Shown in pieces: positions 6,617-49,607 of a stretch of DNA of 64,000 nucleotides. Location: positions 1 through 64,000 of IMG/VR virus record IMGVR_UViG_3300050015_000167; one strand, 5' to 3'. The stretch comes from a virus. The notes below the pieces were generated by a model, which saw only the letters and a list, made by a program, of their open reading frames with translations, was not told the origin of the DNA and did not search any database. Numbering within the stretch: the first letter of the stretch is position 1; the number at the start of each line of letters is the position of its first letter. Both the position numbers and the translations under genes were made by a program.

Positions 6617-6632
6617 CCAAGGCCTCAAGGTC

Positions 6633-6689
6633 CTGTTATCATAACAGAAACCACTTGACACCAGGCCATTGGTGTGTTAGTATTAGATT
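6633..6689 (+). promoter_or_regulatory. early promoter cassette
   Basis: CTGTTATCATAACAG 6633-6647; TTGACA 6655-6660; 17 bp; TAGTAT 6678-6683; 6 nt; ATG 6690. Confidence 0.7.
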
Positions 6690-7274: not shown

Positions 7275-7390
7275 TGTTGTATCTCATCATCGCCGGTATA
7301 TGGATTATATTGTGTTGCCTTTCGGCGCTCTGGTTTTATTGTGCCAAGGCACAGGAACGGAGGCTCCGCAATATGCGGAAGGGGAGATAA
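7274..7390 (+). CDS. small single-pass membrane peptide (38 aa)
   Basis: TAATG overlap with the upstream gene; MLYLIIAGIWIILCCLSALWFYC then basic tail. Confidence 0.35.
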   Translation: MLYLIIAGIWIILCCLSALWFYCAKAQERRLRNMRKGR

Positions 7391-7403
7391 ACTCCCCAAG
7401 ACC

Positions 7404-7460
7404 CTGTTATCATAACAGAATTATCTTGACATCCCCAGTGGACTATGTTATCATTGTTAT
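7404..7460 (+). promoter_or_regulatory. early promoter cassette
   Basis: CTGTTATCATAACAG 7404-7418; TTGACA 7426-7431; 17 bp; TATCAT 7449-7454; 6 nt; ATG 7461. Confidence 0.7.
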
Positions 7461-7739
7461 ATGACAAGTTTAGAAATGCAGAAGGCCATCGGCCAGCCCG
7501 TGATATACGAGAGCCACGGCCTCCGTTTTGTATGCGTGGTGAGGGATGTAAAGGTCTCTTATGGACAACCACGCTTCCTGATTACGCCAATGATGGGAAC
7601 AGGAGAGACCTTTGTAGAGATTGGCACGATTTCACCGATGCCAGCGGATAAGAACCAATTGCGATATACACCGGAACGCCACGTGAGCCCGGGGTACGCT
7701 GCCCTCCCTAGTGGTCAGAACGGAATGATTGTCCGTTAG
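7461..7739 (+). CDS. hypothetical early protein (92 aa)
   Basis: Starts 6 nt after the -10 box. Confidence 0.6.
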   Translation: MTSLEMQKAIGQPVIYESHGLRFVCVVRDVKVSYGQPRFLITPMMGTGETFVEIGTISPMPADKNQLRYTPERHVSPGYAALPSGQNGMIVR

Positions 7740-7750
7740 TGAAATAGTTG

Positions 7751-7785
7751 TTGACATCCGCCAACGATTGTGAGATACTAATTAC
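7751..7785 (+). promoter_or_regulatory. sigma70-like promoter, leaderless geometry, no palindrome
   Basis: TTGACA 7751-7756; 17 bp; TGaGATACT (-10 at 7774-7779); 6 nt; ATG 7786. Confidence 0.65.
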
Positions 7786-7965
7786 ATGAGCAAATCGAGT
7801 AACACACCGGGCGCCGCACGAGCGCATTATGAGACGCGCAAAGCGAATCGCCCCGTCCAGATCTGGAAAAAGGCTTTGAAGTCGAAGCCCGGTGTCCCCT
7901 CCACGCGCATTGCCGCGGCCAAGGGTGAAGTGGGAGCCATCCCAGTCAAGTCGTTTTCGAAGTAA
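7786..7965 (+). CDS. hypothetical basic protein (59 aa, below ORF-track cutoff)
   Basis: Hand translation MSKSSNTPGAARAHYETRKANRPVQIWKK...; TAA 7963-7965. Confidence 0.45.
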   Translation: MSKSSNTPGAARAHYETRKANRPVQIWKKALKSKPGVPSTRIAAAKGEVGAIPVKSFSK

Positions 7966-7977
7966 AGGAGCCACACC

Positions 7978-8112
7978 ATGAAGGATTTCGCCGTCGTCAC
8001 GGATTGCCGGACGTATTTCGCTACGTCCGTTGCCGCTAACGTTTACGGATGGGCCACAGGCGGCACCGTCGAAGTCTGGACAAAGAACGGCTGGAAGCCG
8101 TTGAAGGGATAA
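7978..8112 (+). CDS. hypothetical small protein (44 aa)
   Basis: AAGGAG before ATG 7978; TAA 8110-8112. Confidence 0.4.
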   Translation: MKDFAVVTDCRTYFATSVAANVYGWATGGTVEVWTKNGWKPLKG

Positions 8113-8156
8113 GTTTCATACCCGGAGAAGTAGCGCTAAAATTCTCCGATCGCTAG

Positions 8157-8208
8157 CCGGAAGGTGAGCTATAGAGGTCTGCGACCTCCATTGGCCCTTC
8201 CGGTTTTT
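8157..8208 (+). terminator. compound hairpin terminator
   Basis: CCGGAAGG...CCTTCCGG enclosing GAGGTC-TGC-GACCTC, followed by TTTTT. Confidence 0.65.
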
Positions 8209-8224
8209 CTTTGTGACCAAGGTT

Positions 8225-8238
8225 CTATTATCATAACG
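8225..8238. promoter_or_regulatory. degenerate copy of the palindrome
   Basis: CTATTATCATAACG; no well-spaced promoter follows. Confidence 0.4.
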
Positions 8239-8402
8239 AAAGCTTGATATAGACCGCTCTAATAGCGTGGCCACTGTATACTAAATGATGCGATTTCTAC
8301 CCCTACAATGACGCTGGCTGCATTTGTCCATACCCCCTGATACTACAGCATGGGCCGGCCAGCCGACGCAGCCAAGGGCTCGGTATCGATAACGAATAGT
8401 GC

Positions 8403-8436
8403 TTGACTATTAGAACTACCTGTGTTAGTATAGATC
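8403..8436 (+). promoter_or_regulatory. sigma70-like promoter, leaderless geometry
   Basis: TTGACT 8403-8408; 17 bp; TAGTAT 8426-8431; 5 nt; ATG 8437. Confidence 0.65.
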
Positions 8437-8625
8437 ATGGCATTCAATGAAGTAGCTTTCAGAGCGGATCCCGATTCGTTTGATATCAGGGTTTGCGCGG
8501 AAGAGACCGTACTCGGTATGCCTGGTATGGCATTCTTACAATGGAGAGACGCATTCTTGGACACCAAGCCCGGCGTATTCATGCTCCACAAAGCCGAGTG
8601 TCTAATAGATCCATGCGGAAAATAG
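8437..8625 (+). CDS. hypothetical early protein (62 aa)
   Basis: Starts 5 nt after the -10 box. Confidence 0.5.
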   Translation: MAFNEVAFRADPDSFDIRVCAEETVLGMPGMAFLQWRDAFLDTKPGVFMLHKAECLIDPCGK

Positions 8626-8732
8626 TACACATGATGATCCTGTGGACATGGATGATGCCGTGTCCACAGACCCAAGTGGCAACGTTGATTGTCATAGGGA
8701 TATGGATATGGAATCGGAAAGCTTCCAAGGAC

Positions 8733-8783
8733 CCGTTATGATAACGGTGTCTATTAGAACGGAAGCTCCTGTTATGATAACGG
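8733..8783. promoter_or_regulatory. pair of palindromes 36 bp apart without an obvious promoter
   Basis: CCGTTATGATAACGG 8733-8747 (perfect 15-mer) and CTGTTATGATAACGG 8769-8783. Confidence 0.55.
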
Positions 8784-8800
8784 TACCTTGGGGCCTGGAA

Positions 8801-8835
8801 ATGCCCTCCGGGGAGAACCGGAGGGCATGGTTTTT
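8801..8835 (+). terminator. strong rho-independent terminator at the switch to leftward genes
   Basis: ATGCCCTCCGG-6 nt-CCGGAGGGCAT followed by GGTTTTT. Confidence 0.7.
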
Positions 8836-8978
8836 ACCGGGGCATTGCCCGCAGTCTGATGTGAGGTGGTGATGTCCAGGTCAGGGTCTCGGCGGCCCGC
8901 TGGCGTTTGCAATCTGCGATGAACCGTTTCCAGGTACGGAGTATGGACTTCATTTTACCCTCCCAGGAGAAACCCCGC

Positions 8979-9347
8979 TTATGCGGGGTTGAGCATTTTC
9001 GCTTTCGCTTTGGCTTCGATCATTTCGAGTAGCTGCCCGCGATACTTGGCAATCGTGGGGACGGGGACGGTGCCGCGTTTCCAGGGGCGGCGGCAATTGC
9101 GCAGGTCGTCGGCGGTCAGATGGCCCCCGGCGAGTATCACGCGAGCATAGTTCCCGAATTCGCGGGCGTCGGCGACCTGGAAGCCTACGGTGTTTTTGAC
9201 GTAGGTCTCGCCCGTCTGTTTTTCTACTTCGGTCTGGCGTTTATACAGTGCGACGATGGCCATCTCGACCCATGCGTCATTAGTCGAAAGCATATCGAGG
9301 ATCTTTGCTTTCGTCCAGTCGGTTACTTTGTTGTAATTAACGTACAT
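8979..9347 (-). CDS. hypothetical protein (122 aa)
   Basis: ORF track 8979..9398. Minus-strand TTGCAA-16 bp-TACTAT lies at 9384-9357, 9 nt before ATG 9347. The spacer contains a CGTTATCAT half-site. Confidence 0.55.
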   Translation of the reverse strand: MYVNYNKVTDWTKAKILDMLSTNDAWVEMAIVALYKRQTEVEKQTGETYVKNTVGFQVADAREFGNYARVILAGGHLTADDLRNCRRPWKRGTVPVPTIAKYRGQLLEMIEAKAKAKMLNPA

Positions 9348-9586
9348 AACATAATCATAGTAGCATGATAACGGGTGCTTGCAACATGTTTTTATCATAA
9401 TCGAACATTAAAATCTGTTAATGTTCCAACAGGGCCACCTGTGGTGCGCCCACTGTGGCGTGAGATATAAGCGCCCAGGGGCGGATTACAGCGTAGTCCA
9501 ACTATAGCGGAATTCCAAGCTTTTGTCAAGTATCCGAACATTAAAGTTTTTTAATAATTCAACGTCGAAAAAACTTCAGAATTCGC

Positions 9587-9620
9587 TTGACCCAGGGGGT
9601 GCGCTCTGCTACTATGAATC
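9587..9620 (+). promoter_or_regulatory. sigma70-like promoter, leaderless geometry
   Basis: TTGACC 9587-9592; 17 bp; TACTAT 9610-9615; 5 nt; ATG 9621. Confidence 0.6.
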
Positions 9621-9764
9621 ATGATTGAAACGACGATACAGAGCGCAAAAAACCTAATCGACTCGAATCCGGGCGCGGCCGCCGCTGCCATCGCCTTGGG
9701 AGTCTTTATCGCCGCCGCTTATCTCATCGTTTCGTTCTATAAAATTTACACAGGAGCTCACTAA
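9621..9764 (+). CDS. small membrane peptide (47 aa)
   Basis: Hand translation MIETTIQSAKNLIDSNPGAAAAAIALGVFIAAAYLIVSFYKIYTGAH; TAA 9762-9764. Confidence 0.4.
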   Translation: MIETTIQSAKNLIDSNPGAAAAAIALGVFIAAAYLIVSFYKIYTGAH

Positions 9765-9765
9765 A

Positions 9766-10221
9766 ATGTCATTCAAACGCCTCGAAGGTCTCACCGCGAA
9801 GGGTACGCCGATCACCCTGTTCCGCGCAATTGTTGTTAACGCCGAGCAATTCAAGCTGGCCCAAGATATGATCGCCGCCAACAACGGCGAGCCCCTGATG
9901 ACCCGCAAAGTCATCCTGTCCATGAATGAAGCCCTACGCCCCGGGAAAGCATACATGCCGTACTTCATTTCCAAGAACGTCGCCTGCAAGACCAAGACGT
10001 TCGGTGTTTACGACCTGTCTAAACTGAAGCTTTCGGCCGCCGCGAAGGCCGCTGCCGTCGAAACCCCCGCGCCCGAATCGACACCGATCTCCGCGCCGAA
10101 GACCAAGCGCGTCCGCGCAAAGCGCGAATCCAAGCCGAAGCTTGGGCAGCCCGAAACCCCCGTCGCCGAGTCGGTCGAGCACCCGCCCCTGGGCATCGAA
10201 GCCCCCGCCGTCACCGAGTAA
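9766..10221 (+). CDS. paralog of 5352..5777 (globular N-domain + basic/Pro-rich tail)
   Basis: AGGAG before ATG. Shares a 47-bp identical stretch (9937-9983) with 5523-5569. Confidence 0.7.
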   Translation: MSFKRLEGLTAKGTPITLFRAIVVNAEQFKLAQDMIAANNGEPLMTRKVILSMNEALRPGKAYMPYFISKNVACKTKTFGVYDLSKLKLSAAAKAAAVETPAPESTPISAPKTKRVRAKRESKPKLGQPETPVAESVEHPPLGIEAPAVTE

Positions 10222-10322
10222 GTTCTGATAGAATCTCCTCTCCCGAATCGCTCCCCGCTCCCCGGGGGGCTTTTTCAGGCCTACGCGTTATGTAAGTAAC
10301 CACTTACTTACTTCGCAAGGTC

Positions 10323-10336
10323 CCGTTATCATAACC
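10323..10336. promoter_or_regulatory. palindrome copy between convergent terminators
   Basis: CCGTTATCATAACC preceded by CAAGGTC. Confidence 0.5.
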
Positions 10337-10350
10337 GAAGCTTGGGCCTG

Positions 10351-10377
10351 AAAAAGCCCCCGACCGAAGCCGGGGGC
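10351..10377 (-). terminator. rho-independent terminator of the leftward gene
   Basis: Minus strand reads GCCCCCG-8 nt-CGGGGGC followed by TTTTT. Confidence 0.65.
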
Positions 10378-10393
10378 GAAGGACTGGGCGATT

Positions 10394-10717
10394 TTAGCAG
10401 AGTTTCGAAATTTGGGTCGACGCGGTGATAGCGCCCGTCTGAAAGCGGCCGAAGTGGCGAATAACGAAGGGCTGAACCTCGCGGAGGTCAACGTCGGGGT
10501 TGCTCTGCGGATACGTCATATTCGCGGAGATCCCGTTGTTTTTGAGAAGACGAAAGCGGGAGCGGCGAAGCTTGTAAGCGGCGAAGGTCGTCGGCGTCTC
10601 GCCCGCTAACAGTTTGGCGATAAGCTTCAACGAGCCGGCAATGTGGCCTTGCTTGCGGGCGAGGAGGTTGCTGTTTTTGCGCTGTTCCCGGCGCAGGGTT
10701 TTCTCGGTTTTGGTCAT
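10394..10717 (-). CDS. hypothetical basic protein (107 aa)
   Basis: GC-rich ORF followed by a terminator; Arg/Lys-rich N-terminus. Confidence 0.55.
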   Translation of the reverse strand: MTKTEKTLRREQRKNSNLLARKQGHIAGSLKLIAKLLAGETPTTFAAYKLRRSRFRLLKNNGISANMTYPQSNPDVDLREVQPFVIRHFGRFQTGAITASTQISKLC

Positions 10718-10725
10718 TTGTCTCC

Positions 10726-10890
10726 TTAGAAGTCTTCAGATGCAATGAAGGCGCGCCATGCGGGGAGCTCCCAGCCGTCGGGCGCATTGTAGTACAGATT
10801 CGAATGGGTCGAGCATTCCACGCGCAATTCAGCGATTAGCGCGGGGTCGTTTGTTTTCTTGACGTTGATGTAGTCGGCTAGCGTGCTCAT
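10726..10890 (-). CDS. hypothetical small protein (54 aa)
   Basis: ORF track 10726..10956. A minus-strand TTGACG promoter-like element lies inside 10891-10956, so ATG 10890 (MSTLADYINV) is preferred. Confidence 0.45.
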   Translation of the reverse strand: MSTLADYINVKKTNDPALIAELRVECSTHSNLYYNAPDGWELPAWRAFIASEDF

Positions 10891-11097
10891 ATTCAATCTC
10901 ACTGTACTGTATACACTATGGGCTAGTTCCGAGCGCACGTCAAGAGAAATCTGCATTATTCTTTATTAAGATTTGTTAATGAATACACTTTGTACACCTG
11001 TACAATCGTAGAATGCTCTGTGCTGCGTCGGGGCTCAAGTGAGTACAACTACTCAAGTTAGCATCGCCGAGCGCATCACAAGCTTAACACGCTGAAT

Positions 11098-14657: not shown

Positions 14658-14680
14658 GGTCAGTTTGTTGTGAATCCAAG

Positions 14681-14715
14681 AAAAAGGGTTGTCTCTTCGG
14701 AGACAACCCTTTTTC
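14681..14715. terminator. bidirectional rho-independent terminator
   Basis: AAAAA-GGGTTGTCTC-TTCG-GAGACAACCC-TTTTT between convergent gene sets. Confidence 0.8.
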
Positions 14716-17498: not shown

Positions 17499-18231
17499 TG
17501 ATGTGTTTAATTTTCATACAATTGAGAAGATAATTTCTGCCTTTGGGTATATATTTTCAGATATATCTTTCCAGAGAATAGATCCCAATACATCTGCTGT
17601 TAAAACTATTAAGGTTCCAATCAGTCAATCAGCCAAAGAAAAATGGGCTGTACGTGATTTAGAAGATCCAAATGCTGGTGATGAATCACGCCAAAGACAT
17701 GTCCAGATTGTTTTACCCCGAATGGGATATGAAATGATTAATTTCTCTTTCGATCCCACGAGACAATTAACTCCAGTCAATTATCGCGTTCAATCTTCAG
17801 GTAATGGTCCTTCAGCATTAGTACAATTGAATCCTGTTCCTCAAATATTTGATTTTGAATTATATTTACAAACTCGTACATTAAGTGATTCATATGCTAT
17901 TGTTGAACAGATAGCCGCATTCTTTCATCCTGATTATGTTGTGCCCATCATTGATATTCCTGAAATGAATATTCGTAGAGATATCGTTTTTACTATGACT
18001 GGAAAATCTCATTCTGATAGTTATGAAGGTTCATTAATGGATAAACGTATTATTGAATGGACCTTTAATTTTCAAGCACAAGGTCATATTTATCCACCAA
18101 TTAGAGAAAAGAAAGTTATCACGAATACCAAAGTTTTCATGGACAATAGAGAAAGCGTACAACTTACTACGGATCCTCCTGCTCCGAATATTGATGAATC
18201 TTACGATATCATTGAAACTATAGTACCCTAA
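17482..18231 (+). CDS. g15: tail sheath stabiliser / tail completion protein g15
   Basis: FGYIFSDISFQRID...IKVPISQSAKEKW...VQIVLPRMGYEMINFSFD parallels T4 gp15 (LFSNIQIKRQ...IRVPITYASKEHF...ETILPRINLHLVDFSY). Confidence 0.75.
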   Translation: MSMLGNDVFNFHTIEKIISAFGYIFSDISFQRIDPNTSAVKTIKVPISQSAKEKWAVRDLEDPNAGDESRQRHVQIVLPRMGYEMINFSFDPTRQLTPVNYRVQSSGNGPSALVQLNPVPQIFDFELYLQTRTLSDSYAIVEQIAAFFHPDYVVPIIDIPEMNIRRDIVFTMTGKSHSDSYEGSLMDKRIIEWTFNFQAQGHIYPPIREKKVITNTKVFMDNRESVQLTTDPPAPNIDESYDIIETIVP

Positions 18232-18235
18232 ATAT
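18228..18235 (+). promoter_or_regulatory. CTAAATAT motif overlapping the g15 stop, 4 nt before the terS ATG
   Basis: GTACCCTAAATAT-TAAT-ATG 18240. Confidence 0.3.
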
Positions 18236-18239
18236 TAAT

Positions 18240-36983: not shown

Positions 36984-38303
36984 ATGAGAGATTCAATGAC
37001 CACAGATAAATTGGTCGAAAAGTGGGCACCGGTTCTCGATGATGAGAATTTTGGCAAGTTGACTAATCGCCATAAACGCCGCGTAGTTGCGACAGTTATG
37101 GAAAATCAACAAGAAGAATATACAAAAACTCGCCAAATCTTGTCGGAAGCCGCTCCAACACTAAGTACTGGTGCTGGAATCGCTAATTTCGATCCAATCT
37201 TGATTTCATTAGTAAGACGTGCAATGCCCAATCTTATTGCGTATGATGTTTGCGGCGTTCAACCCATGGTTGGACCAACTGGCTTAATCTTCGCTATGAA
37301 GTCACGTTATACCAGCAAGACCGGTACAGAAGCTTTATTCAATGAAGCTGATACCGCGTTTACTGGTCAGACAGCAACAGCCCCAACAGCCGGTTTCGGT
37401 GGAACAGCCCATGCTGGTACGGATCCCGTATCTACTGGTTTCCCTCCAACTGCTTCTGGTTATACAACTGGTCGTCCTATGACAACCGGACAAGGTGAAG
37501 CTTTGGGAGATCAAGTTGGACCTGATTTCAACCAAATGGCATTCTCAATCGACAAGATTTCCGTTGAAGCAAAGACCCGCGCATTGAAAGCTGAGTATTC
37601 AGTTGAAGTTGCCCAAGATCTAAAAGCTATCCATGGTCTTGACGCTGAAACAGAATTAGCGAATATTCTTTCCGCTGAAATCTTAACCGAAATCAACCGG
37701 GAAATTATCCGTACCATTTACTTCATCGCCGTCCCTGGTGCAGCACAAACCACAGTTCCTGGCACATTCGACTTAGATGTTGACGCAAACGGTCGTTGGT
37801 CAGTTGAGAAGTTTAAGGGTTTGATGTTCCAAGTAGAACGCGAAGCCAATGCTATTGCAAAGGCAACCCGTCGTGGTAGAGGGAATGTTATCATCTGTTC
37901 ATCAGACGTTGCTAGTGCGCTAGTAATGGCTGGTAAATTAGATTATACTCCTGCTATCCAAAGTGACCTAACTGTTGACGATACTGGCAACACATTCGCT
38001 GGTGTTCTAAACGGACGTTTCAGAGTTTATATCGATCCTTACTTTGGTAATGGTGGTGTAAACGAAGAATTCTTATTGGTTGGCTATAAGGGTGCTAATG
38101 CGTATGATGCCGGTTTGTTCTATTGCCCATACGTTCCTCTACAGTTGTTTAGAGCACAAGATCCACATAGCTTCCAGCCAAAAATCGCATTTAAGACAAG
38201 ATATGCTGTTGCTCCAAATCCATTCTGGAGTGATGCTAATGCTACGCTTCAAGCGAATAGTTCCGCATATTACAGAATGATTAAAATCACTAATTTGTTA
38301 TAG
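36984..38303 (+). CDS. g23: major capsid protein g23
   Basis: LIAYDVCGVQPMVGPTGLIFAMKSRY signature of gp23; 439 aa; follows the scaffold gene. Confidence 0.9.
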   Translation: MRDSMTTDKLVEKWAPVLDDENFGKLTNRHKRRVVATVMENQQEEYTKTRQILSEAAPTLSTGAGIANFDPILISLVRRAMPNLIAYDVCGVQPMVGPTGLIFAMKSRYTSKTGTEALFNEADTAFTGQTATAPTAGFGGTAHAGTDPVSTGFPPTASGYTTGRPMTTGQGEALGDQVGPDFNQMAFSIDKISVEAKTRALKAEYSVEVAQDLKAIHGLDAETELANILSAEILTEINREIIRTIYFIAVPGAAQTTVPGTFDLDVDANGRWSVEKFKGLMFQVEREANAIAKATRRGRGNVIICSSDVASALVMAGKLDYTPAIQSDLTVDDTGNTFAGVLNGRFRVYIDPYFGNGGVNEEFLLVGYKGANAYDAGLFYCPYVPLQLFRAQDPHSFQPKIAFKTRYAVAPNPFWSDANATLQANSSAYYRMIKITNLL

Positions 38304-38336
38304 ATACAAAGAATTGTGGCTTAGTTTTAAACTCAA

Positions 38337-38365
38337 AAGGGAAATCGAAAGGTTTCCCTTTCTTT
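38337..38365 (+). terminator. rho-independent terminator after g23
   Basis: AAGGGAAA-8 nt-TTTCCCTT followed by TCTTT. Confidence 0.65.
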
Positions 38366-38391
38366 AGAAGCATCAAAAACTTAAAATTATC

Positions 38392-38426
38392 TTGACAACT
38401 TCGGACGACTGTGATATAATGGTCTC
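38392..38426 (+). promoter_or_regulatory. sigma70-like promoter, leaderless geometry, in the AT-rich backbone
   Basis: TTGACA 38392-38397; 17 bp; TGaTATAAT (-10 at 38415-38420); 6 nt; ATG 38427. Confidence 0.65.
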
Positions 38427-39344
38427 ATGATAGAAAATAAACCGTACACATACATTTACTATACTACTGATATGATTCCTTTTTATGTAGGAAAAGGGAC
38501 CGATAAACGAGCATATAAACATTTAACTGAATCTTTAGAAAAAACCAACAATCCAGAAAAAGTAAAAGAAATACAAAAAATTCTTGAATCTGGCAAAACA
38601 CCCATTATAAAAATAATGTATGCTGAAACCGAGTCTGAAGCCTTTGAATTAGAAGAATTTTTGACCTATCATTGGGGATTACGTCACAAAGGTGGAATTC
38701 TTACTAATATGCAATATGGTGGTGAAAATGGTAAATTTGTTGGTTTTGCTGATTTACCTAGAACACAAAAACATAAAAAGAAAATTAGTAAAGCAACCAA
38801 AAAATATAATAATTCTCATCCAGAAAAATGGGAAAAATTTACTAATCAACAGAAAAAAGAACCTAAATCTCCAAAAGCTTGTAAGAAAATGTCCGAAACT
38901 AAACTTAAATTGTATGCAGAACACCCGGAACTCCATCCCCGCCTTGGGAAACAACAATCAGAATATTCTATTCAAGTTTCAAGAGAAGTTAATTCTGGTA
39001 CATGGGAAATAACCTTCCCCGATCACCATAAAGAATTGATAACTAATTTGAAACTGTTTTGTAAAGAACATTCCATTAATCATGGAAATCTTGCAAACGG
39101 ATCTGCTGCTGGATATAAAGCAATCAATTTAAATCCCAATAAAAAGAAAGCCAAAACTCAATCAGCAAAAGACGCCATTTCTAATGCAAGATCATGTTCC
39201 TATCAAATTATTTTTCCTGATAACCACATTGAGATCATATCTAATCTTTCTAAATGGCGAGAAAACAATAATATCAAACGTGATAATTTAATGACACCAA
39301 AAGGTAATTCTCAAGGTTACCATGCCACAAAAATTGAATCCTAA
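38427..39344 (+). CDS. GIY-YIG family homing endonuclease (305 aa)
   Basis: YTYIYYTTDMIPFYVGKGTDKRAYKH...EAFELEEFL...LTNMQYGG. Confidence 0.7.
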   Translation: MIENKPYTYIYYTTDMIPFYVGKGTDKRAYKHLTESLEKTNNPEKVKEIQKILESGKTPIIKIMYAETESEAFELEEFLTYHWGLRHKGGILTNMQYGGENGKFVGFADLPRTQKHKKKISKATKKYNNSHPEKWEKFTNQQKKEPKSPKACKKMSETKLKLYAEHPELHPRLGKQQSEYSIQVSREVNSGTWEITFPDHHKELITNLKLFCKEHSINHGNLANGSAAGYKAINLNPNKKKAKTQSAKDAISNARSCSYQIIFPDNHIEIISNLSKWRENNNIKRDNLMTPKGNSQGYHATKIES

Positions 39345-39350
39345 AGTACC

Positions 39351-39358
39351 CTAAATAC
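39351..39358 (+). promoter_or_regulatory. CTAAATAC motif 4 nt before the start codon
   Basis: GTACCCTAAATAC-TAAC-ATG 39363. Confidence 0.3.
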
Positions 39359-39362
39359 TAAC

Positions 39363-39575
39363 ATGCCAATAGATATCATTCACGGAAAAGGTTATAGAAT
39401 TGGAGAATCTGATAGAATAATCGGAGATTCTACTGCTGACCCAGAAGGTTTTATAGTTCTTAATCAACAAAATGGTAAATTATTTCTTGTTGCTGGTGGT
39501 ATATGGACTGATGGTGGAACTTTTTCTAATGCCAATTTTACTCAAGAATATTTTGATACCTGGATTTTAAGTTAA
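39363..39575 (+). CDS. small protein, N-terminal paralog of 39585..40031
   Basis: GKGYRIGESDRIIGDSTADPEGFIVLNQ versus PKYRIGNSGRIIGSSAVPPEGFILLNL. Confidence 0.55.
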   Translation: MPIDIIHGKGYRIGESDRIIGDSTADPEGFIVLNQQNGKLFLVAGGIWTDGGTFSNANFTQEYFDTWILS

Positions 39576-39584
39576 AGGACAATT

Positions 39585-40031
39585 ATGTCAGTTTCAGCAT
39601 ATCGTATACCAAAATACCGTATAGGAAATTCAGGAAGAATTATTGGTTCTTCTGCGGTTCCTCCAGAAGGATTTATATTACTGAATTTGAGTGATAATAA
39701 TTGTTATATTGTTTCTGGAGGATTATGGACAACTCTCGATATAATTCCTAATCCTATAGTAATAGTTTTTAATTTATCATCAAATGTTTCTAGTCAAAGT
39801 GTTTTTACTTTTTATGTTGATCCTATTTCTGGTTCAGATTCAAATACTGGGTTAACAAAATATGATGCATGGTTGACAACAGAACATTCAGATTTACAAA
39901 TTTTACTTCCAGGACAAACCATAGGTTATTTACAATCTGGTTCCTGGGTTCTTTACCGGACACTAAATATGACCGTAGATCAAACAAATATGACCGCAGA
40001 TAATATGACGGCTGGAGCTAATCAATTCTAA
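39585..40031 (+). CDS. hypothetical protein (148 aa), paralog of 39363..39575
   Basis: Shared N-terminal 50 aa. Confidence 0.55.
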   Translation: MSVSAYRIPKYRIGNSGRIIGSSAVPPEGFILLNLSDNNCYIVSGGLWTTLDIIPNPIVIVFNLSSNVSSQSVFTFYVDPISGSDSNTGLTKYDAWLTTEHSDLQILLPGQTIGYLQSGSWVLYRTLNMTVDQTNMTADNMTAGANQF

Positions 40032-40032
40032 T

Positions 40033-40830
40033 ATGAAAACACTATTTCTTTCTCTATTTCTTTGTGTTGGGTTATTTGGACAGATAGTTAATATACCTAC
40101 TAATATAGGAATTAAAAATCTTCCTGGTGCTATTAATTCTAATTATTCAACCACATCACAATTTATATCTGGCACCTCTATACCATTATCTTGTGTCTCT
40201 ACCTCTAATATAGCATTTTATAAAACGGATAGCAAGGCATATTATGATTGTATTAATAATTTGTATCTCCTAAGAATTAATGCTGATGCGTCAGGTAACG
40301 TATCGGTGGGGGCTACGGTGCTTGGCCCAAAGACCATCGGGGCGGGGGCAAACCAACTCCCAGCAGCGGCAACCTGTACGCGCTGCATGACGATGGTTAC
40401 TGATGCGGCGAGCGCCTCCGATTGCACCGTTGGATCAGGCAGCAGCATAGCGGTCTGTTATTCGAACGGTACGTTGTGGGGGCCACTGGGCGCGGGTGCT
40501 ACCCCCGTGCCCACTCCCAGCACCACCATCACTCTCACAGCGCCACGCGGGTACGCGATCTGTACTGGCACATGCACGGTGACTTTGCCCGTGCCAGCGG
40601 CCGGTTACGAATTCTGCGTTATGAACGACGACGCCGTGGCGACGGCGATCACTCTTGCCGCTCTCGGGTCTGGTGCCATGTATGAGAACGCGATTCGCAC
40701 GGCGTATGGAACGCCGGGGACTGGGACTATGGTGCTTGCGGCTGCACAAGGGAATGCTATGTGCCTCGTGGGTAGAGATGTCACTCACTACCTGACGGTT
40801 TCGTACACCGGCTCTCCAACGGTGAACTAA
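40033..40830 (+). CDS. mosaic exported protein: AT-rich 5' part (signal peptide + about 85 aa) fused in frame to a GC-rich Cys/Gly/Thr-rich C-domain
   Basis: MKTLFLSLFLCVGLFGQ signal peptide. Composition switches at about 40285-40300 inside the ORF without a frame break. Confidence 0.7.
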   Translation: MKTLFLSLFLCVGLFGQIVNIPTNIGIKNLPGAINSNYSTTSQFISGTSIPLSCVSTSNIAFYKTDSKAYYDCINNLYLLRINADASGNVSVGATVLGPKTIGAGANQLPAAATCTRCMTMVTDAASASDCTVGSGSSIAVCYSNGTLWGPLGAGATPVPTPSTTITLTAPRGYAICTGTCTVTLPVPAAGYEFCVMNDDAVATAITLAALGSGAMYENAIRTAYGTPGTGTMVLAAAQGNAMCLVGRDVTHYLTVSYTGSPTVN

Positions 40831-40831
40831 C

Positions 40832-42058
40832 ATGAGACGCTTACTCATCGGATTTCTGGCGATTTCGCTGTTCGGGCAATCGCTGATGAAGATTGTTAAC
40901 CAGGGCGATCCGAAGGCCTCCTGGTATACCACCCACACCACCGGGTTTGCCCCCGTGTACTCAAAAACTGGGAGCACGCTTATTTGGGCGTGGCCGGATG
41001 GGACTTTCGATAGCAGCAATTCTCCTACGAAAACTCTCGCATCCGGAACGAAGCGCGTTGAGGTCCAATCGCAGGATGGATTTGGTGCTGTAACGGCTAT
41101 CGATGTTAACTCGATGGATCTCACGGGGAGCATCCCCTCGCTGTCGGCCAACACGGCGCTGACGGTCTTCGACGCGCACGGCAACCAGCTCACGGGGAGC
41201 ATCCCCTCGCTGTCGGCCAACACGGCGCTGACGGTCTTCGACGCGGGCGGCAACCAGCTCACGGGGAGCATCCCCTCGCTGTCGGCCAACACGGCGCTGT
41301 CGTACTTCGACGCGGGCGGCAACCAGCTCACGGGGAGCATCCCCTCGCTGTCGGCCAACACGGCGCTGACGGTCTTCTACGCGCACGGCAACCAGCTCAC
41401 GGGGAGCATCCCCTCGCTGTCGGCCAACACGGCGCTGACGGTCTTCTACGCGCACGGCAACCAGCTCACGGGGAGCATCCCCTCGCTGTCGGCCAACACG
41501 GCGCTGTCGTACTTCTACGCGGGCGGCAACCAGCTCACGGGGAGCATCCCCTCGCTGTCGGCCAACACGGCGCTGACGGTCTTCTACGCGGGCGGCAACC
41601 AGCTCACGGGGAGCATCCCCTCGCTGTCGGCCAACACGGCGCTGACGGTCTTCTACGCGCACGGCAACCAGCTCACGGGGAGCATCCCCTCGCTGTCGGC
41701 CAACACGGCGCTGACGGTCTTCTACGCGGGCGGCAACCAGCTCACGGGGAGCATCCCCTCGCTGTCGGCCAACACGGCGCTGACGGTCTTCTACGCGGGC
41801 GGCAACCAGCTCACGGGCTCAATCCCCGGCAGTTTTGCGACTCAACAGACTTTGGCGAATCTGGATATATCGACTAATGCCCTCCCATCCTCCGACATCG
41901 ATCAGATTCTCGCGGATCTGGTGGTAAGTCTGAGTATCAGTGGCCGTGTGGTGTGCGATGTGGAATTGGGCGGTGGGACTAATGGACCACCAACGGGCCA
42001 GGGCATCACGGACAAGGCCACTCTTATCGCAGGCGGGTGGACGGTGGTGACCAATTGA
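40832..42058 (+). CDS. leucine-rich-repeat protein with signal peptide
   Basis: MRRLLIGFLAISLFGQ, then ten 23-aa units GNQLTGSIPSLSANTAL[TV/SY]F[DY]A[HG] (N.L.G.IP..L LRR signature). Confidence 0.8.
   Translation: MRRLLIGFLAISLFGQSLMKIVNQGDPKASWYTTHTTGFAPVYSKTGSTLIWAWPDGTFDSSNSPTKTLASGTKRVEVQSQDGFGAVTAIDVNSMDLTGSIPSLSANTALTVFDAHGNQLTGSIPSLSANTALTVFDAGGNQLTGSIPSLSANTALSYFDAGGNQLTGSIPSLSANTALTVFYAHGNQLTGSIPSLSANTALTVFYAHGNQLTGSIPSLSANTALSYFYAGGNQLTGSIPSLSANTALTVFYAGGNQLTGSIPSLSANTALTVFYAHGNQLTGSIPSLSANTALTVFYAGGNQLTGSIPSLSANTALTVFYAGGNQLTGSIPGSFATQQTLANLDISTNALPSSDIDQILADLVVSLSISGRVVCDVELGGGTNGPPTGQGITDKATLIAGGWTVVTN
41117..41820. repeat. 69-bp tandem repeat, about 10 near-identical copies
   Basis: GGCAACCAGCTCACGGGGAGCATCCCC... 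recurs at 41180, 41249, 41318, 41387, 41456, 41525, 41594, 41663, 41732 and 41801. Confidence 0.9.
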
Positions 42059-42453
42059 GACGCACGCTGCCCTGGATCATCGTCGCTGGGTTGTTCTGCC
42101 TATTGATGTCCCCATACCTTCGGGCGCAGGAGAAGCCCACGAGCATCTGGTGGGTACACGGGGCCGTGGTCGCTCATATGATGAGTGCCACTCAGGACGG
42201 ATTGTCAAGCTGGAAACAGTCGGAGGCGAACCCGATCTACACCACTCAGGCAGGTCCGCAGGCGGGGCATTTCTACCGCACTGGCGCGGGCAGGATGACG
42301 GCGTCAACGCTCAGTGTGGTGGCGGTGAGTGAAGTCGTCGCGCATTTCAAACCGGGCTGGAAAAAGTACATCGCTGCTCTCAATTTCGGCGCAGCCACGG
42401 CGCACGTCGGAGTCACGGCAAGCAACGTGGTTCGCAATCCTTACTACAGGTAA
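42055..42453 (+). CDS. exported or membrane protein (132 aa)
   Basis: TTG 42055 overlaps the TGA of the LRR gene (ORF track start GTG 42037). N-terminus MRRTLPWIIVAGLFCLLMSPYLRAQE. Confidence 0.5.
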   Translation: MRRTLPWIIVAGLFCLLMSPYLRAQEKPTSIWWVHGAVVAHMMSATQDGLSSWKQSEANPIYTTQAGPQAGHFYRTGAGRMTASTLSVVAVSEVVAHFKPGWKKYIAALNFGAATAHVGVTASNVVRNPYYR

Positions 42454-42536
42454 CGTATTTAATCGCGGTTTTTGCTATGGAAATTCTCCACAATTCGGAA
42501 AGCAGGGGCAGCGCAAGAGGCCCCGCCCCGCTCGGG

Positions 42537-43562
42537 TCACAGGTACGACGGCGCGTGCTGGCGGTAGTCTGCGGTGTGGGCGTGCTGGCTGCGATGAACG
42601 TAAATCATCGTGCTCTGCACGTAGACGTGGCCGAGCTGGTCCTTGATGGTCAGCATGTGGGCTCCCCTGTTTGCCATGTTGGTGGCGAGCGAGTGGCGCA
42701 TCAGGTGTGGCCAGACGCGGCGGTCAATGCCCGCCCGCTTGGCCAGGACTCGCACGATCTTACGCACGTCCTGCGATTGCAGTTGATGGCCGTGGCGCTT
42801 CGTGACGAACAGCAGGTCATCGGGCATCAGGGTCTTTCCCTTGGTAGTCAGTTGAGCCTTTCGCCAAGCGAGGTACTCTTCGAGCAACCCCAGGCACTCT
42901 CCGGTTACGGCGGCGTCCCGTTGCTTGTTGAATTTGCATTCCTCCATGCGGAGGATGCCGTTGGGGATGTCAATGTCACGGATGCGGAGGTTGCAAAGCT
43001 CGTTGTTCCGAATTCCCGAATAGGCCATCGTGGAGATGAGCGCCTTCTCGCGGATGCTTGTCGTCGAGTGCAGGAGGATTGCCACCTCGGCTTCCGTCAA
43101 TGTAACAGGGACGCTGTTGGTTCGCTTCGGTGGCCGCATCAGATCGATGGGGTTGCCGATGTACTCGCAAAAGCGTTCCATCGTGCTGCACATGATCGAA
43201 ATATAGCCGGGGGAGTTCTTGCCGTCCGAGCGCATGAGCGCGATGAACGATTCCAGATCGCCGTGGGAAGGATTGCTCCCGATCAGCGGATGGGCGCGGC
43301 GCAGCACGCCAAGGTAGAGCGCGGCTGTCCGGTTGTTGACTTTGCAGTGAGTGTACAGGTACGTCTCGAAACTACTCAGGAGACGCTTGCATTCTTCGGA
43401 AACAGGGGTAGACTTTTGTTTAGCCATTGTGGCCCGCTCCAACGGGCTGGTGGTCAGAGCCGCCGCTTGACTGCGAATCTTGCGGTGGCTCGATTCCCAC
43501 TCTACCCCAATTGGCAACGTTCCACCACGGTTGATCGTTGCTTCCAGTACCAACATGGTCAT
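42537..43562 (-). CDS. tyrosine recombinase / integrase (XerC/D-like), GC-rich copy
   Basis: AYSGIRNNELCNLR...HLMRHSLATNMANRGAHMLTIKDQLGHVYVQSTMIYVH carries the R...HxxR...Y catalytic pattern. Confidence 0.85.
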   Translation of the reverse strand: MTMLVLEATINRGGTLPIGVEWESSHRKIRSQAAALTTSPLERATMAKQKSTPVSEECKRLLSSFETYLYTHCKVNNRTAALYLGVLRRAHPLIGSNPSHGDLESFIALMRSDGKNSPGYISIMCSTMERFCEYIGNPIDLMRPPKRTNSVPVTLTEAEVAILLHSTTSIREKALISTMAYSGIRNNELCNLRIRDIDIPNGILRMEECKFNKQRDAAVTGECLGLLEEYLAWRKAQLTTKGKTLMPDDLLFVTKRHGHQLQSQDVRKIVRVLAKRAGIDRRVWPHLMRHSLATNMANRGAHMLTIKDQLGHVYVQSTMIYVHRSQHAHTADYRQHAPSYL

Positions 43563-43631
43563 GGGGTACGCCCATGGTCGAAAGTTTAGGCAACGGTCTT
43601 ACTGTTTTACGTTACTTGTAAATAATATTAC

Positions 43632-43688
43632 TTGACAACACAAGAGAATCTGTAGTATTGTAGGATTATGACTACTACAGATTCTCTT
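43632..43688 (+). promoter_or_regulatory. promoter plus 16-bp perfect inverted repeat bracketing the recombinase start
   Basis: TTGACA 43632-43637; 18 bp; TATTGT 43656-43661; 6 nt; ATG 43668. Inverted repeat AAGAGAATCTGTAGTA 43642-43657 / TACTACAGATTCTCTT 43673-43688. Confidence 0.6.
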
Positions 43689-44503
43689 AAATCATTTGAA
43701 ACCTTTCTTTACGTTACTTTAGGATTAGCAGAAACACCACCGATGGTTATACTAATGTTATTAAACGCGCATTACCTTTTATTGGTGATAATTTTACCAT
43801 TGATAATGTAAATCACTATATAATGAATCTTAGGAAAAATAACAAAACCTCTTCGTATATTCAAAATATTTGTGTATCTTTAGAAAGATATGGAGAATTT
43901 ATTGGTATTCCTATTAAATTAGGGCGACCTAAAAAATCAAATCAAATATTAAAATCTCCATTATCTGAAGCTGAAATAACAATAATTATAGAAGCAACTA
44001 AAAATATTAGAGAAAAATCAATTTTATCTCTATTAGCATATTCTGGAATAAGAAATCAAGAATTGTGTTCTTTAAGGATCAGAAATTTAAATTTAGCCCA
44101 ACAATCTGTATTTGTCGAAAATGGAAAAGGACATAAATCTAGGTTAGTTTTTATTTCTGGAAATTGTTGCGAATTATTACAAAAATACTTGCATACCACT
44201 CGTATCGATATTAGTCCAGATGAATTGTTATTTCTAACCTTGCGTAATAATTTACCATTAGAACCACAGGATTTGCGTAAAATAATCAAAACTGTTGCAA
44301 AAAGAACTAAAATCACCAAAAGGATTCATCCTCATCTTTTTCGTCATAGTTTAGCAACAAACATGCTTAATAGAGGAGCAAATCTTATGACTATTAAAGA
44401 ACAATTAGGACATAAGTATATTGAAACTACAATGATTTATATTCATAGTACCCAACAAAGAGTCCAGGCAGAATATCGCATGTTTACACCAAGTTACATG
44501 TAA
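43668..44503 (+). pseudogene. AT-rich paralog of the tyrosine recombinase, needing a -1 frameshift near 43725-43740
   Basis: 43668-43811 (MTTTDSLKSFETFLY...) and the frame of 43823..44503 align consecutively with the GC-rich copy. C-part HLFRHSLATNMLNRGANLMTIKEQLGHKYIETTMIYIH is intact. Confidence 0.6.
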
Positions 44504-44569
44504 ACATAAATAAGGAAATATATCAACCTTCGGTCATACCAAAGGTTATTACGCAAACAAAGTAACACC

Positions 44570-44577
44570 CTAAATAC
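44570..44577 (+). promoter_or_regulatory. CTAAATAC motif upstream of the glycosyltransferase gene
   Basis: ACACCCTAAATAC, 8 nt before ATG 44586. Confidence 0.25.
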
Positions 44578-44585
44578 TAGTACCA

Positions 44586-47804: not shown

Positions 47805-47822
47805 ATATTCAAAGTTTACGCT

Positions 47823-47830
47823 CATAAATA
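47823..47830 (+). promoter_or_regulatory. late-promoter-like motif CATAAATA
   Basis: 14 nt before ATG 47844. Confidence 0.3.
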
Positions 47831-47843
47831 GATATAGAACATT

Positions 47844-49607
47844 ATGAGCGTAAACTTTTCAGTAGTTTTGATTTGCCGCAATGAGGCAAAAACACTTCCC
47901 CGTCTGTTAAAATCTTTGGAAGAATTTCAAAAGAAAGATGGAGAAGTTATCTTACTTGACACCGGTTCAACTGATAATACACCATCTATCGCAAGATCTC
48001 TTGGATGTAAAGTTACTGAAGTAGGTGAACGATTCCTAACAACAATTGATGAAGACTTGGCAGAAAAGATTAATACCAGGTTTGTAATCGAGAATGAACA
48101 ACCTATAGTCAAAGTAGGTGATAAACTCTTTGATTATTCCTCTGCCCGTAACTTTGCTGCCACTCTTTCCTCTAATGACATGTGTGCTATGCCTGATTGT
48201 GATGAGGCTTATACCATGTTAAACATTGATGCTATACAAAAAGTCATTGAACAAGGATGCGAACAATTAGAATATCATTTTGTGTTCTCTCATTATCCTG
48301 ATGGTTCACCAGCTATTCAATTTATGCATTCCAAGTTTTATAATCGCACCAAAATGAAGTGGGTTGGCGTAGTACATGAAGTACTTTCTGGTGACGCAAA
48401 ACGGATGTACCTTGACACTTCTATCATCAAATTAGAACATTGGCAAGAACCATCAGAGCACCGCTCTCGATATCTGACTGGATTAGCTCTGGATTGCTAT
48501 TTGAACCAAGAAAATGACAGAAATTCACATTATTTGGGTCGTGAGCTAGTTTGGACAGGTAGACACAAGTCCGGCATCAAAGAATTACAAAGGCACGTAG
48601 AAATGCGTAAATTTCCTATGGAACGCGCACAATCTATGATTTTCATTGGTGATGCTTATGAAATGCTTGGAGATGAGCAAAATGCTCTAAAATGGTACAA
48701 TCAGTCATTTTTAGATGATGGTACTCGTAGAGAACCACTTTTACGCATGGCACAACACTTTTGGAAGAAAAATGATGCTTTGAAAGTAGCATGTTATTGT
48801 GCGGCAGCAATGGAAATTGGTGAAGTCAGTTTCTATGCTAATTATGCCGCTCATTATACCTTTGAACCTCATGAATTGATGTACTGGGCAAAATGGTATC
48901 TTGGAGATAAAGAAGAATCTAAATTACATTGGGAAAAATGTCTTGCTTATACTCCTCTTTCTCCTAAATATTTACATGATGCCCGTTTCTATATTAAACT
49001 ACCCAAGGTGTCTATTGTAATTCCTACTCTCGGAAGAGAAGAAAAATTACAACGTTGTATTGATGCTATCAAGAAAAATGCTAATTATCCTGAAGAAGCC
49101 TATGAAATCATCGTTGAACATGATTCCTTTGAGACCAGACAAGGGGTTCCAAAGACTTTGAAGGCTGGAGTAGATAAAAGTACCGGTGAATTAGTCATGT
49201 TTCTTGGAAATGACTGTATTCCAGAAGAAAACTTCTTAATTCTTGCTGTATTGAGAATGTTAAAAGAATTCCCACGTTGTGGTGGTTTAATCGGTCTAAA
49301 TGACGGTCCTACCAATCAAACTGTAGCAAAACACTGGTTAGCCTCAAAAAACCTATTGAAACATTTGGATGGAGAATTTTTCTGTACCTTATATCATCAT
49401 GTCGGTTGCGATAATGAATTGACGGGACGGTGTCTGAAAATGTCTAAATATTATTGGTGTGAAGAGGCAAAGGTAAAACACGATCATTTTGTCAGTGGTG
49501 CTGAGTTTGATGATGTATATAAACTTGGATGGAATGAAAAGTGTGTTGCCGAGGACAGGAAACTCCTTGCTGAACGTGCCAAATTGTTAGACTTTGAGAT
49601 ATTATAA
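47844..49607 (+). CDS. double GT2 glycosyltransferase with central TPR-like region
   Basis: FSVVLICRNEAKTLPRLL...ILLDTGSTDNT at the N-terminus; VSIVIPTLGREEKLQRCIDAI...IIVEHDS at the C-terminus. Confidence 0.7.
   Translation: MSVNFSVVLICRNEAKTLPRLLKSLEEFQKKDGEVILLDTGSTDNTPSIARSLGCKVTEVGERFLTTIDEDLAEKINTRFVIENEQPIVKVGDKLFDYSSARNFAATLSSNDMCAMPDCDEAYTMLNIDAIQKVIEQGCEQLEYHFVFSHYPDGSPAIQFMHSKFYNRTKMKWVGVVHEVLSGDAKRMYLDTSIIKLEHWQEPSEHRSRYLTGLALDCYLNQENDRNSHYLGRELVWTGRHKSGIKELQRHVEMRKFPMERAQSMIFIGDAYEMLGDEQNALKWYNQSFLDDGTRREPLLRMAQHFWKKNDALKVACYCAAAMEIGEVSFYANYAAHYTFEPHELMYWAKWYLGDKEESKLHWEKCLAYTPLSPKYLHDARFYIKLPKVSIVIPTLGREEKLQRCIDAIKKNANYPEEAYEIIVEHDSFETRQGVPKTLKAGVDKSTGELVMFLGNDCIPEENFLILAVLRMLKEFPRCGGLIGLNDGPTNQTVAKHWLASKNLLKHLDGEFFCTLYHHVGCDNELTGRCLKMSKYYWCEEAKVKHDHFVSGAEFDDVYKLGWNEKCVAEDRKLLAERAKLLDFEIL

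Follow-up and report, generated by a model that had tools for sequence, protein, structure and literature searches.

The window analysed here comprises 64,000 nucleotides (nt) of viral DNA (IMG/VR virus record IMGVR_UViG_3300050015_000167, positions 1 to 64,000), and it contains two tyrosine recombinase genes that lie head to head downstream of the major capsid protein (MCP) gene of a T4-like phage. The first of them was found on the minus strand at 42537..43427; it is GC-rich and intact, and encodes an Xer-like protein of 296 aa that starts with MAKQK, matches PF00589 with E = 7e-33 and has homologs of the same length with up to 80% identity. The second, an AT-rich Xer-like gene on the plus strand at 43668..44503 (PF00589, E = 1e-39), is split by a 1-nt deletion at 43731-43735 into two open reading frames (ORFs) of 47 and 226 aa. 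The ORF of the GC-rich copy (42537..43562, minus strand) has a GC content of 0.587 and a GC content at third codon positions (GC3) of 0.778, versus 0.285 and 0.167 for that of the AT-rich copy (43668..44503, plus strand). The two genes are called below the GC copy and the AT copy.

As all 118 homologs, with lengths of 270-315 aa, start at the equivalent of MAKQK, the start of the GC gene is most likely at 43427. The divergent orientation described in the first-pass annotation was confirmed, but with this start the spacer between both genes is 240 bp long (43428-43667) and not 105 bp. The homology of the two proteins was also confirmed, with 45% identity over 232 aa by BLASTP (E = 3e-75) and 44% over 280 aa when the repaired AT copy was used. 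The catalytic Arg, His-x-x-Arg, His and Tyr positions are kept in both copies; in the family alignment R126, R244, H245 and H267 are invariant and K165 and Y276 nearly so, and both copies keep all of them. However, each copy is about as near to many other members of the family as to its neighbour, and judged by their sequences the GC and AT copies are two lineages of one family and not recent paralogs.

Within the AT copy, frame 1 reads MTTTDSLKSFETFLYVTLGLAE and the continuation in frame 3 reads NTTDGYTNVIKRALPFIG. Insertion of a single A into GAAAC (43731-43735) joins both frames into a 278-aa family protein that aligns end to end with its relatives and keeps every catalytic residue, so that the shift suspected near 43725-43740 corresponds to one missing base. 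The sequence around the frameshift was 100% identical in two Logan contigs (SRR35915826) and in one Joint Genome Institute (JGI) contig (3300050020), and the 226-aa ORF is also present in a JGI contig of 176,794 bp. No slippery heptamer of the type X XXY YYZ was found at 43725-43740, where the sequence is GCA GAA ACA CCA CCG and the only run is AAA; therefore, the change of frame is a plain 1-nt deletion, and the slippery heptamer with downstream structure expected for programmed -1 ribosomal frameshifting is not what this site offers. No relative of the AT protein exceeded 54% identity, and the closest ones whose sequences were inspected (P0240-P0265) are rich in Ala and Arg, as proteins of GC-rich genomes are. 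As the GC3 of the AT copy is only 17%, we infer from these data that this gene has been resident in the AT-rich genome for a long time. A terminator-like hairpin, reported on the minus strand, follows the 3' end of the gene at 44524..44548 and is itself followed by a repeated gene-start motif, recognized by motif comparison and described below.

With respect to their class, both proteins belong to the PF00589 tyrosine recombinase superfamily, but they scored below the curated NCBIfam cut-offs of every Xer equivalog. The best model was XerA_Arch, with 166 and 182 bits for the two copies versus a cut-off of 220, followed by XerC (129 and 145 versus 335), XerD (125 and 138 versus 330) and XerS (86 and 88 versus 267). 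The integron integrase model for IntI (TIGR02249) aligned in two separate stretches with 84 and 98 bits, versus a cut-off of 265, and no attC-like repeats were found at the locus. Nor do these proteins match lambda-type integrases, which have an N-terminal arm-binding domain and att sites with a common core at the ends of the element: Xer-type models span both proteins (278-296 aa) over their whole length, and the tract has no direct repeat at its ends. Among solved structures XerA (5hxy) is the nearest, and a family-specific tail, YRxxAPSY(L/M), is conserved at the C terminus of both copies. Both are thus classed as arm-less, Xer-like tyrosine recombinases. They share with XerA, XerC/D and XerS the size of 278-296 aa and the combination of a SAM-like N-domain with a catalytic domain, and they differ from the Xer equivalogs in scores far under the cut-offs, in their own C-terminal tail, in their location in phage or mobile DNA beside fibre genes, and in the presence of several copies per metagenome-assembled genome (MAG).

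The GC copy forms part of a foreign GC-rich tract of 3.3 kb (about 40297..43598), with 60.7% GC compared to 30-32% in its flanks; the GC content steps up from 0.30 to 0.63 near 40285 and drops back from 0.56 to 0.30 at about 43598. Contig L014, which is GC-rich and comes from a different sample, showed 98.5% nt identity to the tract over 40297-40835 and 97.6% over 40815-40939, and the related locus L007 was 79.5% identical over 42468-43598. The left junction is crossed by one contig (L003) and the right one by two (L004 and L005); both were reproduced at 100% identity in Logan SRR35915826 contigs, and the right one also in JGI 3300050020. As the assemblies break only within the leucine-rich repeats (LRR) of the tract, an assembly artefact is unlikely. 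A broader artefact, in which a chimeric assembly, a sequencing error behind the frameshift or programmed ribosomal frameshifting would account for the locus, could be invoked because the change in composition is extreme and the assemblies possibly come from one project. We regard it as very improbable, since separate contigs from two assemblers cross each junction at 100% identity, the ORF over the left junction remains open, the breaks do not coincide with the junctions, and the short AAA run at the frameshift is not part of any slippery heptamer.

The left end of the tract lies inside a chimeric fibre-like ORF of 265 aa (40033..40830, plus strand), composed of an AT-rich N-terminal part of 84 aa with a hydrophobic leader and a GC-rich C-terminal part of 180 aa. 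The step in GC content from 0.30 to 0.63 falls within this ORF, which stays open, so that the tract continues the reading frame of a resident gene. Over residues 76-265 the product shows 92% identity to a protein of 357 aa (P0119) whose N terminus differs and is GC-rich, and L014 holds the same pair of genes, fibre-type and LRR, but also with a GC-rich N terminus. The C-terminal 110 aa constitute a widespread domain (149 matches), predicted as a beta-sandwich with a predicted local distance difference test (pLDDT) score of 85-93 that resembles phage tailspike and fibre domains; its structural matches include TSP4 of phage CBA120 (probability 1.0) and many viral fibre models. The next gene (40832..42058, plus strand; PF12799/PF00560) encodes an LRR protein with 11 tandem repeats of 69 nt (23 aa; repeat family D1) and a hydrophobic N-terminal leader ending in LFGQ, the first 36 residues of which are identical in L014. 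It is followed in the ORF list by a small GC-rich ORF (42037..42453, plus strand) of 138 aa from a GTG, or 115 aa from the ATG at 42106, with a signal-peptide-like N terminus and no family match; it is convergent with the GC copy and stands where the relatives carry spike or SGNH-hydrolase genes. Therefore, from its composition, the L014 and P0119 matches and the predicted fold, the tract gave the phage an LRR protein, a small secreted protein and a recombinase, and its fibre-like protein a new C-terminal domain of the fibre type. These sequence comparisons support that it is real foreign DNA, of recent import, beside an old resident homolog. With respect to the N termini, the AT-rich start of the chimeric ORF (40033-40090) and that of the GC-rich LRR gene (40832-40880) both encode a hydrophobic leader ending in LFGQ, and many homologs of the fibre-type domain have signal-peptide-like N termini ending in AQ, unusual for virion fibres.

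Upstream of the GC copy, two hairpins are predicted on the minus strand. Hairpin 1 (43457..43491, -64..-30 from the start) is the best inverted repeat of the region -90..+10, has no second copy in the window, and has counterparts of differing sequence at about -66..-26 (centre near -45) in nearly all of the 25 family loci compared. Hairpin 2 (43432..43447), only a few nt ahead of the AUG, has a 5-bp stem, GCCCG/CGGGC, and its loop contains the Shine-Dalgarno sequence GGAG. Its position is conserved in the relatives, in which stems compared sequence by sequence show the compensatory pairs GUGCG/CGCAC, GCCUG/CAGGC and AGCCU/AGGCU. The leader of GC-type family members carries in addition a conserved CYCTRACCA motif.

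Further upstream lies an imperfect palindrome of 28 bp (43514..43541) with an 11-6-11 layout, GCAACGTTCCA CCACGG TTGATCGTTGC, whose arms match at 9 of 11 positions. By this layout it might be a site of the Xer/dif type (28-31 bp, with two 11-bp arms and a centre of 6-8 bp, used by the enzyme), and its position recalls XerS, the gene of which is genetically linked to its difSL site (PMC2731167). The palindrome is conserved in L007 but not in L117, a relative with 70% identity; it was dropped as a family-wide site and is a weak candidate for a dif-like site; no second copy was found in the window or in the fetched loci, identical contigs excepted. The half-site GCAACGNTC matches four times in the window versus 0.8 expected, with three of the matches within 43514-43598: two are the arms of the palindrome and the third (43590..43598, plus strand) coincides with the right edge of the tract and the end of the homology to L007. 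A tRNA fragment or attP, suspected upstream of the GC copy from the T-arm-like GGAATCGAGCC, was discarded, as ARAGORN gave no tRNA and Rfam gave nothing at the gathering threshold or at E <= 10.

The contigs that carry relatives of the GC copy with 70-94% aa identity are GC-rich, and in them the recombinase gene converges with large genes for fibres, spikes or SGNH hydrolases; more distant members were found inside phage structural modules (L008, with P22-type coat, portal and terminase, and L015). This convergence with fibre or spike genes, seen also in the P22-like L008, recalls the int-att modules at the end of the tail-fibre or tailspike genes of lambdoid and P22-type phages, but the present family lacks an arm-binding domain, no att site or prophage ends were identified, and L008 has structural genes on both sides of the recombinase. 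In the genome scan, all the closest matches were in MAGs of Acidobacteriota (Ca. Solibacter, Bryobacteraceae, Terracidiphilus and Acidobacteriaceae), with several family copies per MAG, again near fibre-like genes. This distribution fits the abundance of XerD-like integrase genes reported for Ca. Solibacter (PMC3469429). The fibre C-terminal domain and the recombinase did not co-occur in the MAG loci. Given that the relatives are in GC-rich phage contigs and Acidobacteriota MAGs, the donor was probably of the Acidobacteriota-phage type, in agreement with the fibre-type fold of the C-terminal domain.

Homology between the window and L007, L116 and L117 is limited to the gene and short flanks (from 42448-42468 to 43440-43598). 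Similarly, in six Acidobacteriaceae loci it extends only from -68/-77 to +843/+876, and the flanks are unrelated. As homology stops at these edges, leader, recombinase gene and terminator behave together as one discrete unit of the mosaic. In six Acidobacteriaceae MAG contigs with unrelated flanks (L022, L023, L025, L026, L027 and L067) the structured leader, recombinase and terminator hairpin make up a cassette of about 0.95 kb with 88-91% identity, and L026 carries, directly upstream of it, another tyrosine recombinase gene that differs from the first. The closest relative of the GC copy (94% aa identity; L116, 1-600) has its 5' end truncated by an IS3-type transposase gene (HTH_Tnp_1).

The tract and both recombinase genes are included in a larger block (38304..44585) that extends from the MCP gene to the genes for GT358, a gp3-like protein and UvsY. 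In T4-like relatives with an 86% identical MCP, the MCP gene is followed directly by that of the gp3-like protein (L098 and L099) or by those of GT358 and the gp3-like protein (L096 and L097). As these relatives lack the block, it is accessory and marks a hot spot of the type known as a hyperplastic region. A gene-start motif, AAAGTA..ACCCTAAATACTA, is repeated on the plus strand at 39342..39362 on the left and 44558-44580 on the right, bracketing the 5.2 kb from orf70 to the AT recombinase, which the relatives lack. Its core CCCTAAATACTA is exact only at 39349 and 44568, and a third copy with one mismatch (18226-18237) precedes a gene at 18240; each copy is separated by only a few nt from the ATG that follows it, that of orf70, of GT358 or of the gene at 18240. 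For T4-like phages, modular shuffling of hyperplastic regions mediated by PeSLs (promoter early stem-loops) has been described (PMC4122927). As in that system, the block is a variable stretch set between core genes, with repeated terminator- or promoter-like motifs on both sides; in contrast, the motif here is a late-type gene-start motif with three copies only, and the own ends of the GC tract lack it. At the left end of the block, directly 3' of the MCP gene, a free-standing GIY-YIG homing-endonuclease-like gene was detected (38427..39344, plus strand; PF22945 LEM-3_GIY-YIG, E = 4.4e-9), comparable to segD beside gene 23 in T4. The two genes that follow, orf70 (39363-39575) and orf148 (39585-40031), look like tandem paralogs with a common N-terminal motif, YRIG.S.RIIG.S...PEGFI.LN.

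Two of the readings offered by the first-pass annotation were an integrative element inserted next to a resident homolog and a recombinase-driven switch acting on the neighbouring surface-protein cassette. Of the first, a foreign 3.3-kb tract beside an old homolog is supported, and excision or integration as a discrete element is hypothetical: no att-like direct repeats were found at the two ends of the tract by the repeat search, and its left end falls within a gene that is contiguous in L014. No empty-site variant was recovered either, as an exact scan of the JGI metagenomes with the right AT flank gave 0 matches. In the strict version of this reading the GC recombinase would have integrated its own 3.3-kb tract upstream of the resident homolog, or an antiparallel crossover between upstream sites would have been followed by an illegitimate join on the left. 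The tract indeed adjoins a homolog and has the recombinase at one end, with the 5' region of the gene at the junction; the edge at 43598 is the end of the module shared with L007 and lies on a GCAACGNTC half-site, with the same-armed 28-bp palindrome 50 bp inside; and the confinement of homology to leader and gene in the six Acidobacteriaceae loci makes the gene a discrete unit. Against it, no direct repeat is common to both ends, the left end lies in a gene that is uninterrupted in L014, the palindrome is not conserved in L117, no candidate site has a second copy in the window, and the upstream endpoints of homology vary in the Solibacter group. On balance, strict integration is unlikely, and so is a recombinase-assisted crossover at the right end of the tract, possible as it is.

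A switch fared worse. The repeat search found no inverted repeats flanking the tract segment, the ORF map shows no alternative 3' cassettes in opposite orientation, and the window holds no second copy of any candidate site; together with the lack of att-like repeats, this argues against a switch and leaves strict site-specific integration hypothetical. An inversion or shufflon of the Rci/Rin style acting on the fibre/LRR cassette would be in line with the recurrent position of the family beside fibre and spike genes, and a tyrosine recombinase shufflon is reportedly found on phage receptor-binding genes in Bifidobacterium prophages. Rci/Rin shufflons and Gin/Cin fibre inversion systems share with this locus a recombinase beside receptor-binding genes, but the several inverted sites and alternative 3' segments that characterize them are absent here. 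Each of the relatives L007, L008 and L117 shows just one convergent gene, with no cassettes. The sole long-range inverted pair (39337-55/43708-26, 17 of 19 positions) overlaps the gene-start motif, and inversion between its arms would put a stop before the recombinase body. A shufflon is accordingly a far-fetched explanation.

Three specific rearrangements were considered and rejected. The inversion between 39337-55 and 43708-26, followed by hand, did not repair the frame of the AT copy, and its left arm is part of the recurrent gene-start motif. If the DNA between two 12-nt direct repeats (43606 and 43708) were deleted, the gene would lose its conserved N-terminal helix, and the motif was not enriched at up to two mismatches. 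Finally, a pair of hybrid att junctions (GCAACG...CGTTAC on the right and GTAACG...CGGTGC on the left) disagrees in length, and CGGTGC is ordinary coding sequence in L014, so that the similarity was attributed to chance. Capture of the tract is shown by the data above, and T4-type hot-spot or illegitimate recombination is sufficient to explain it.

The AT copy starts within a perfect 16-bp inverted repeat (43642..43688, plus strand) that encloses a -10 box and the ATG, as the first-pass annotation had described. Its arms, each of 16 nt (43642-57 and 43673-88), are 100% complementary and separated by 15 nt; the window has three loci at which a perfect repeat of at least 16 nt falls within 50 nt, versus none in 60 Markov simulations. 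Further copies of the 16-mer were not found in the window, save for one chance match with three mismatches. The repeat overlaps a sigma-70-like promoter, TTGACA-18-TATTGT (43632..43661, plus strand), a consensus match only and the best one (10/12) in 39-46 kb. Its TTGACA box (43632-37) is followed by an 18-nt spacer filled by the left arm, TATTGT (43656-61) lies at the border between arm and loop, and the predicted start 7 nt after the -10 box is 43668, the A of the ATG of the AT copy. As RNA, the full repeat is predicted to fold into a 21-bp stem of -23.8 kcal/mol (z = -5.2) in which the AUG is paired. The same design was observed on an unrelated gene of the window, where a perfect 17-bp inverted repeat with a 14-nt loop (47811-47858) includes in its right arm the AUG (47844) of a gene for a 587-aa glycosyltransferase-like protein; a late-promoter-like CATAAATA lies at its arm/loop border and the predicted fold, of -21.3 kcal/mol, pairs the AUG.

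In T4, hairpins with an internal promoter control the initiation regions notably of the mobile endonuclease genes (I-TevI, I-TevII, I-TevIII, segB and mobE), and also of e, soc, 25, 26 and 39 (PMC2988022). The repeat of the AT copy resembles them as a stable stem-loop over the initiation region, with a promoter-like site whose transcript would lack the 5' arm, on the gene of a DNA-cutting enzyme of foreign origin in a T4-type genome that has a second example at 47811-47858. As far as its sequence allows one to say, it has the architecture of a T4-type start-sequestering hairpin with an internal promoter. It differs in that the internal promoter is sigma-70-like and not TATAAATA, the predicted transcript is leaderless, and the arms are perfect over 16 bp. 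The 15-bp spacer is unlike any tyrosine recombinase core site known to us, the known overlap regions having 6-8 bp. A Fim-type invertible promoter, with two inverted repeats around a promoter segment of a few hundred bp, does not match this repeat either, as 15 nt between the arms is, to our knowledge, too short for inversion by known tyrosine recombinases.

A DNA operator for the recombinase or another dimeric protein, or a crossover site of the AT copy itself, was weighed as the other use of the repeat. The arms, at -26..-11 and +6..+21 of the predicted start, are well placed for occlusion; I-TevI represses its own promoter via an operator in T4 (PMC2988022); and family members keep an inverted repeat upstream of the gene. 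However, these upstream repeats have loops of anything from 3 to 15 nt, a variation more easily reconciled with hairpins than with fixed dimer sites, the unrelated gene at 47844 has the same architecture, and the long spacer already mentioned speaks against a crossover site. We consider this use of the repeat improbable. As promoter geometry, fold, the twin at 47811-47858, the hairpins kept in the leaders of the GC-type family, the T4 precedent and the spacer all agree, the repeat was read as a device of expression control: in all likelihood it is a common hairpin of the T4 style by which the start codon is hidden, and not a recombination site. Of the options originally proposed for the locus, regulation or occlusion of the start codon by the repeat was thus the best supported.

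The phage is an uncultured T4-like myovirus from soil, of roughly 33% GC. Its markers in the window are a Gp23-type MCP (36984-38303; PF07068, E = 1e-141), a tail-tube/gp3-like gene and UvsY, and TATAAATA precedes the MCP gene as T4 late promoters do. The backbone has about 30-36% GC with a few GC-rich tracts interspersed. The MCP was at most 60% identical to those of deposited phages, megablast and blastn searches of INPHARED gave no match for the region or for the other GC-rich tract, and scans of IMG/VR with both recombinases and with GT358 gave no close relatives. The notion that T4-type phages normally lack integrases is consistent with these data, since close T4-like relatives lack the whole block and neither recombinase has a close relative in IMG/VR. 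The gene content points to Acidobacteriota as the host.

Outside the locus, positions 1-1000 and 5000-11000 of the window are also GC-rich (51-57% GC) with short ORFs only; they gave no tRNA, Rfam or phage-database match, and the sole Pfam match was a partial L7/L12 C-terminal domain at 6227-6562. A perfect 16-bp hairpin with a 4-nt loop and a T-run (14680-14715), just 5' of a gene that starts at 14732, is probably an intrinsic terminator.

Taking these results together, we think it probable that the locus is a mosaic within the hyperplastic region between the MCP and gp3 genes, made up of an old, broken resident recombinase, a recent GC-rich capture and a start-hiding hairpin. An arm-less Xer-like gene has been resident long enough to take on 29% GC and 17% GC3 and is now split by a single-base deletion. 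The tract would derive, as one uninterrupted segment, from a GC-rich phage or prophage of Acidobacteriota whose fibre or spike genes run into the 3' end of this recombinase gene, and its capture would be very recent. It carries the 3' two-thirds of a fibre-type gene, the LRR gene, the gene for a small secreted protein and, together with the structured leader native to it, the intact recombinase; its left end is joined in frame to a resident gene, which gives the chimeric fibre-like protein. The AT copy would be in decay, perhaps because the arrival of the new one left it dispensable. A transcript made from the promoter-like site between the arms would begin with the AUG itself and, devoid of the left arm, could be translated as a leaderless mRNA, whereas in read-through transcripts both arms would be present and the AUG buried in the 21-bp stem.

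Several observations weigh against parts of this explanation. The three assemblies may share a sample or project, and a systematic consensus error at the frameshift is conceivable. Under pure hot-spot capture, the head-to-head adjacency of two members of the same family is a coincidence, and a site-specific step is hinted at by the point where the tract stops on its right, which is also where the L007 homology ends and falls on a GCAACGNTC half-site present three times in 85 bp. The promoter is defined by consensus, with promoter-like sites in the region no commoner than in shuffled sequences; it is sigma-70-like, in contrast to the late promoters of the T4 precedents, and leaderless translation in the host is assumed. 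The assignment of Acidobacteriota as host is indirect. A bolder proposal is that the family is a self-contained mobile cassette, formed by a structured leader with a site and the arm-less Xer-like recombinase, that resides in fibre-gene clusters of Acidobacteriota phages and serves the capture or exchange of receptor-binding cassettes among unrelated phages, the head-to-head pair being the product of a crossover at the upstream sites of two such cassettes. Such a crossover would have provided a T4-like phage of the virulent type with a new fibre tip. We give this proposal little credence.

The locus combines phenomena of known kinds, namely mosaicism of a hyperplastic region, a phage recombinase of the Xer-like type and a hairpin as in T4. 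That DNA passed very recently into a T4-like phage over a gap of 30 points in GC content, and remodelled a fibre-like protein in frame, is direct evidence of how soil phages may change their host-interaction modules, and it points to Acidobacteriota as the host of this AT-rich T4-like lineage. For the family, the conserved leader, with its hairpins and a Shine-Dalgarno sequence in a loop, and the cassette-like spread in Acidobacteriota genomes are worth noting. T4-like phages are regarded as strictly virulent, and the AT copy indicates that they can keep Xer-like recombinase genes for long, with lysogeny-like integration, resolution of concatemers and capture of cassettes as candidate roles.

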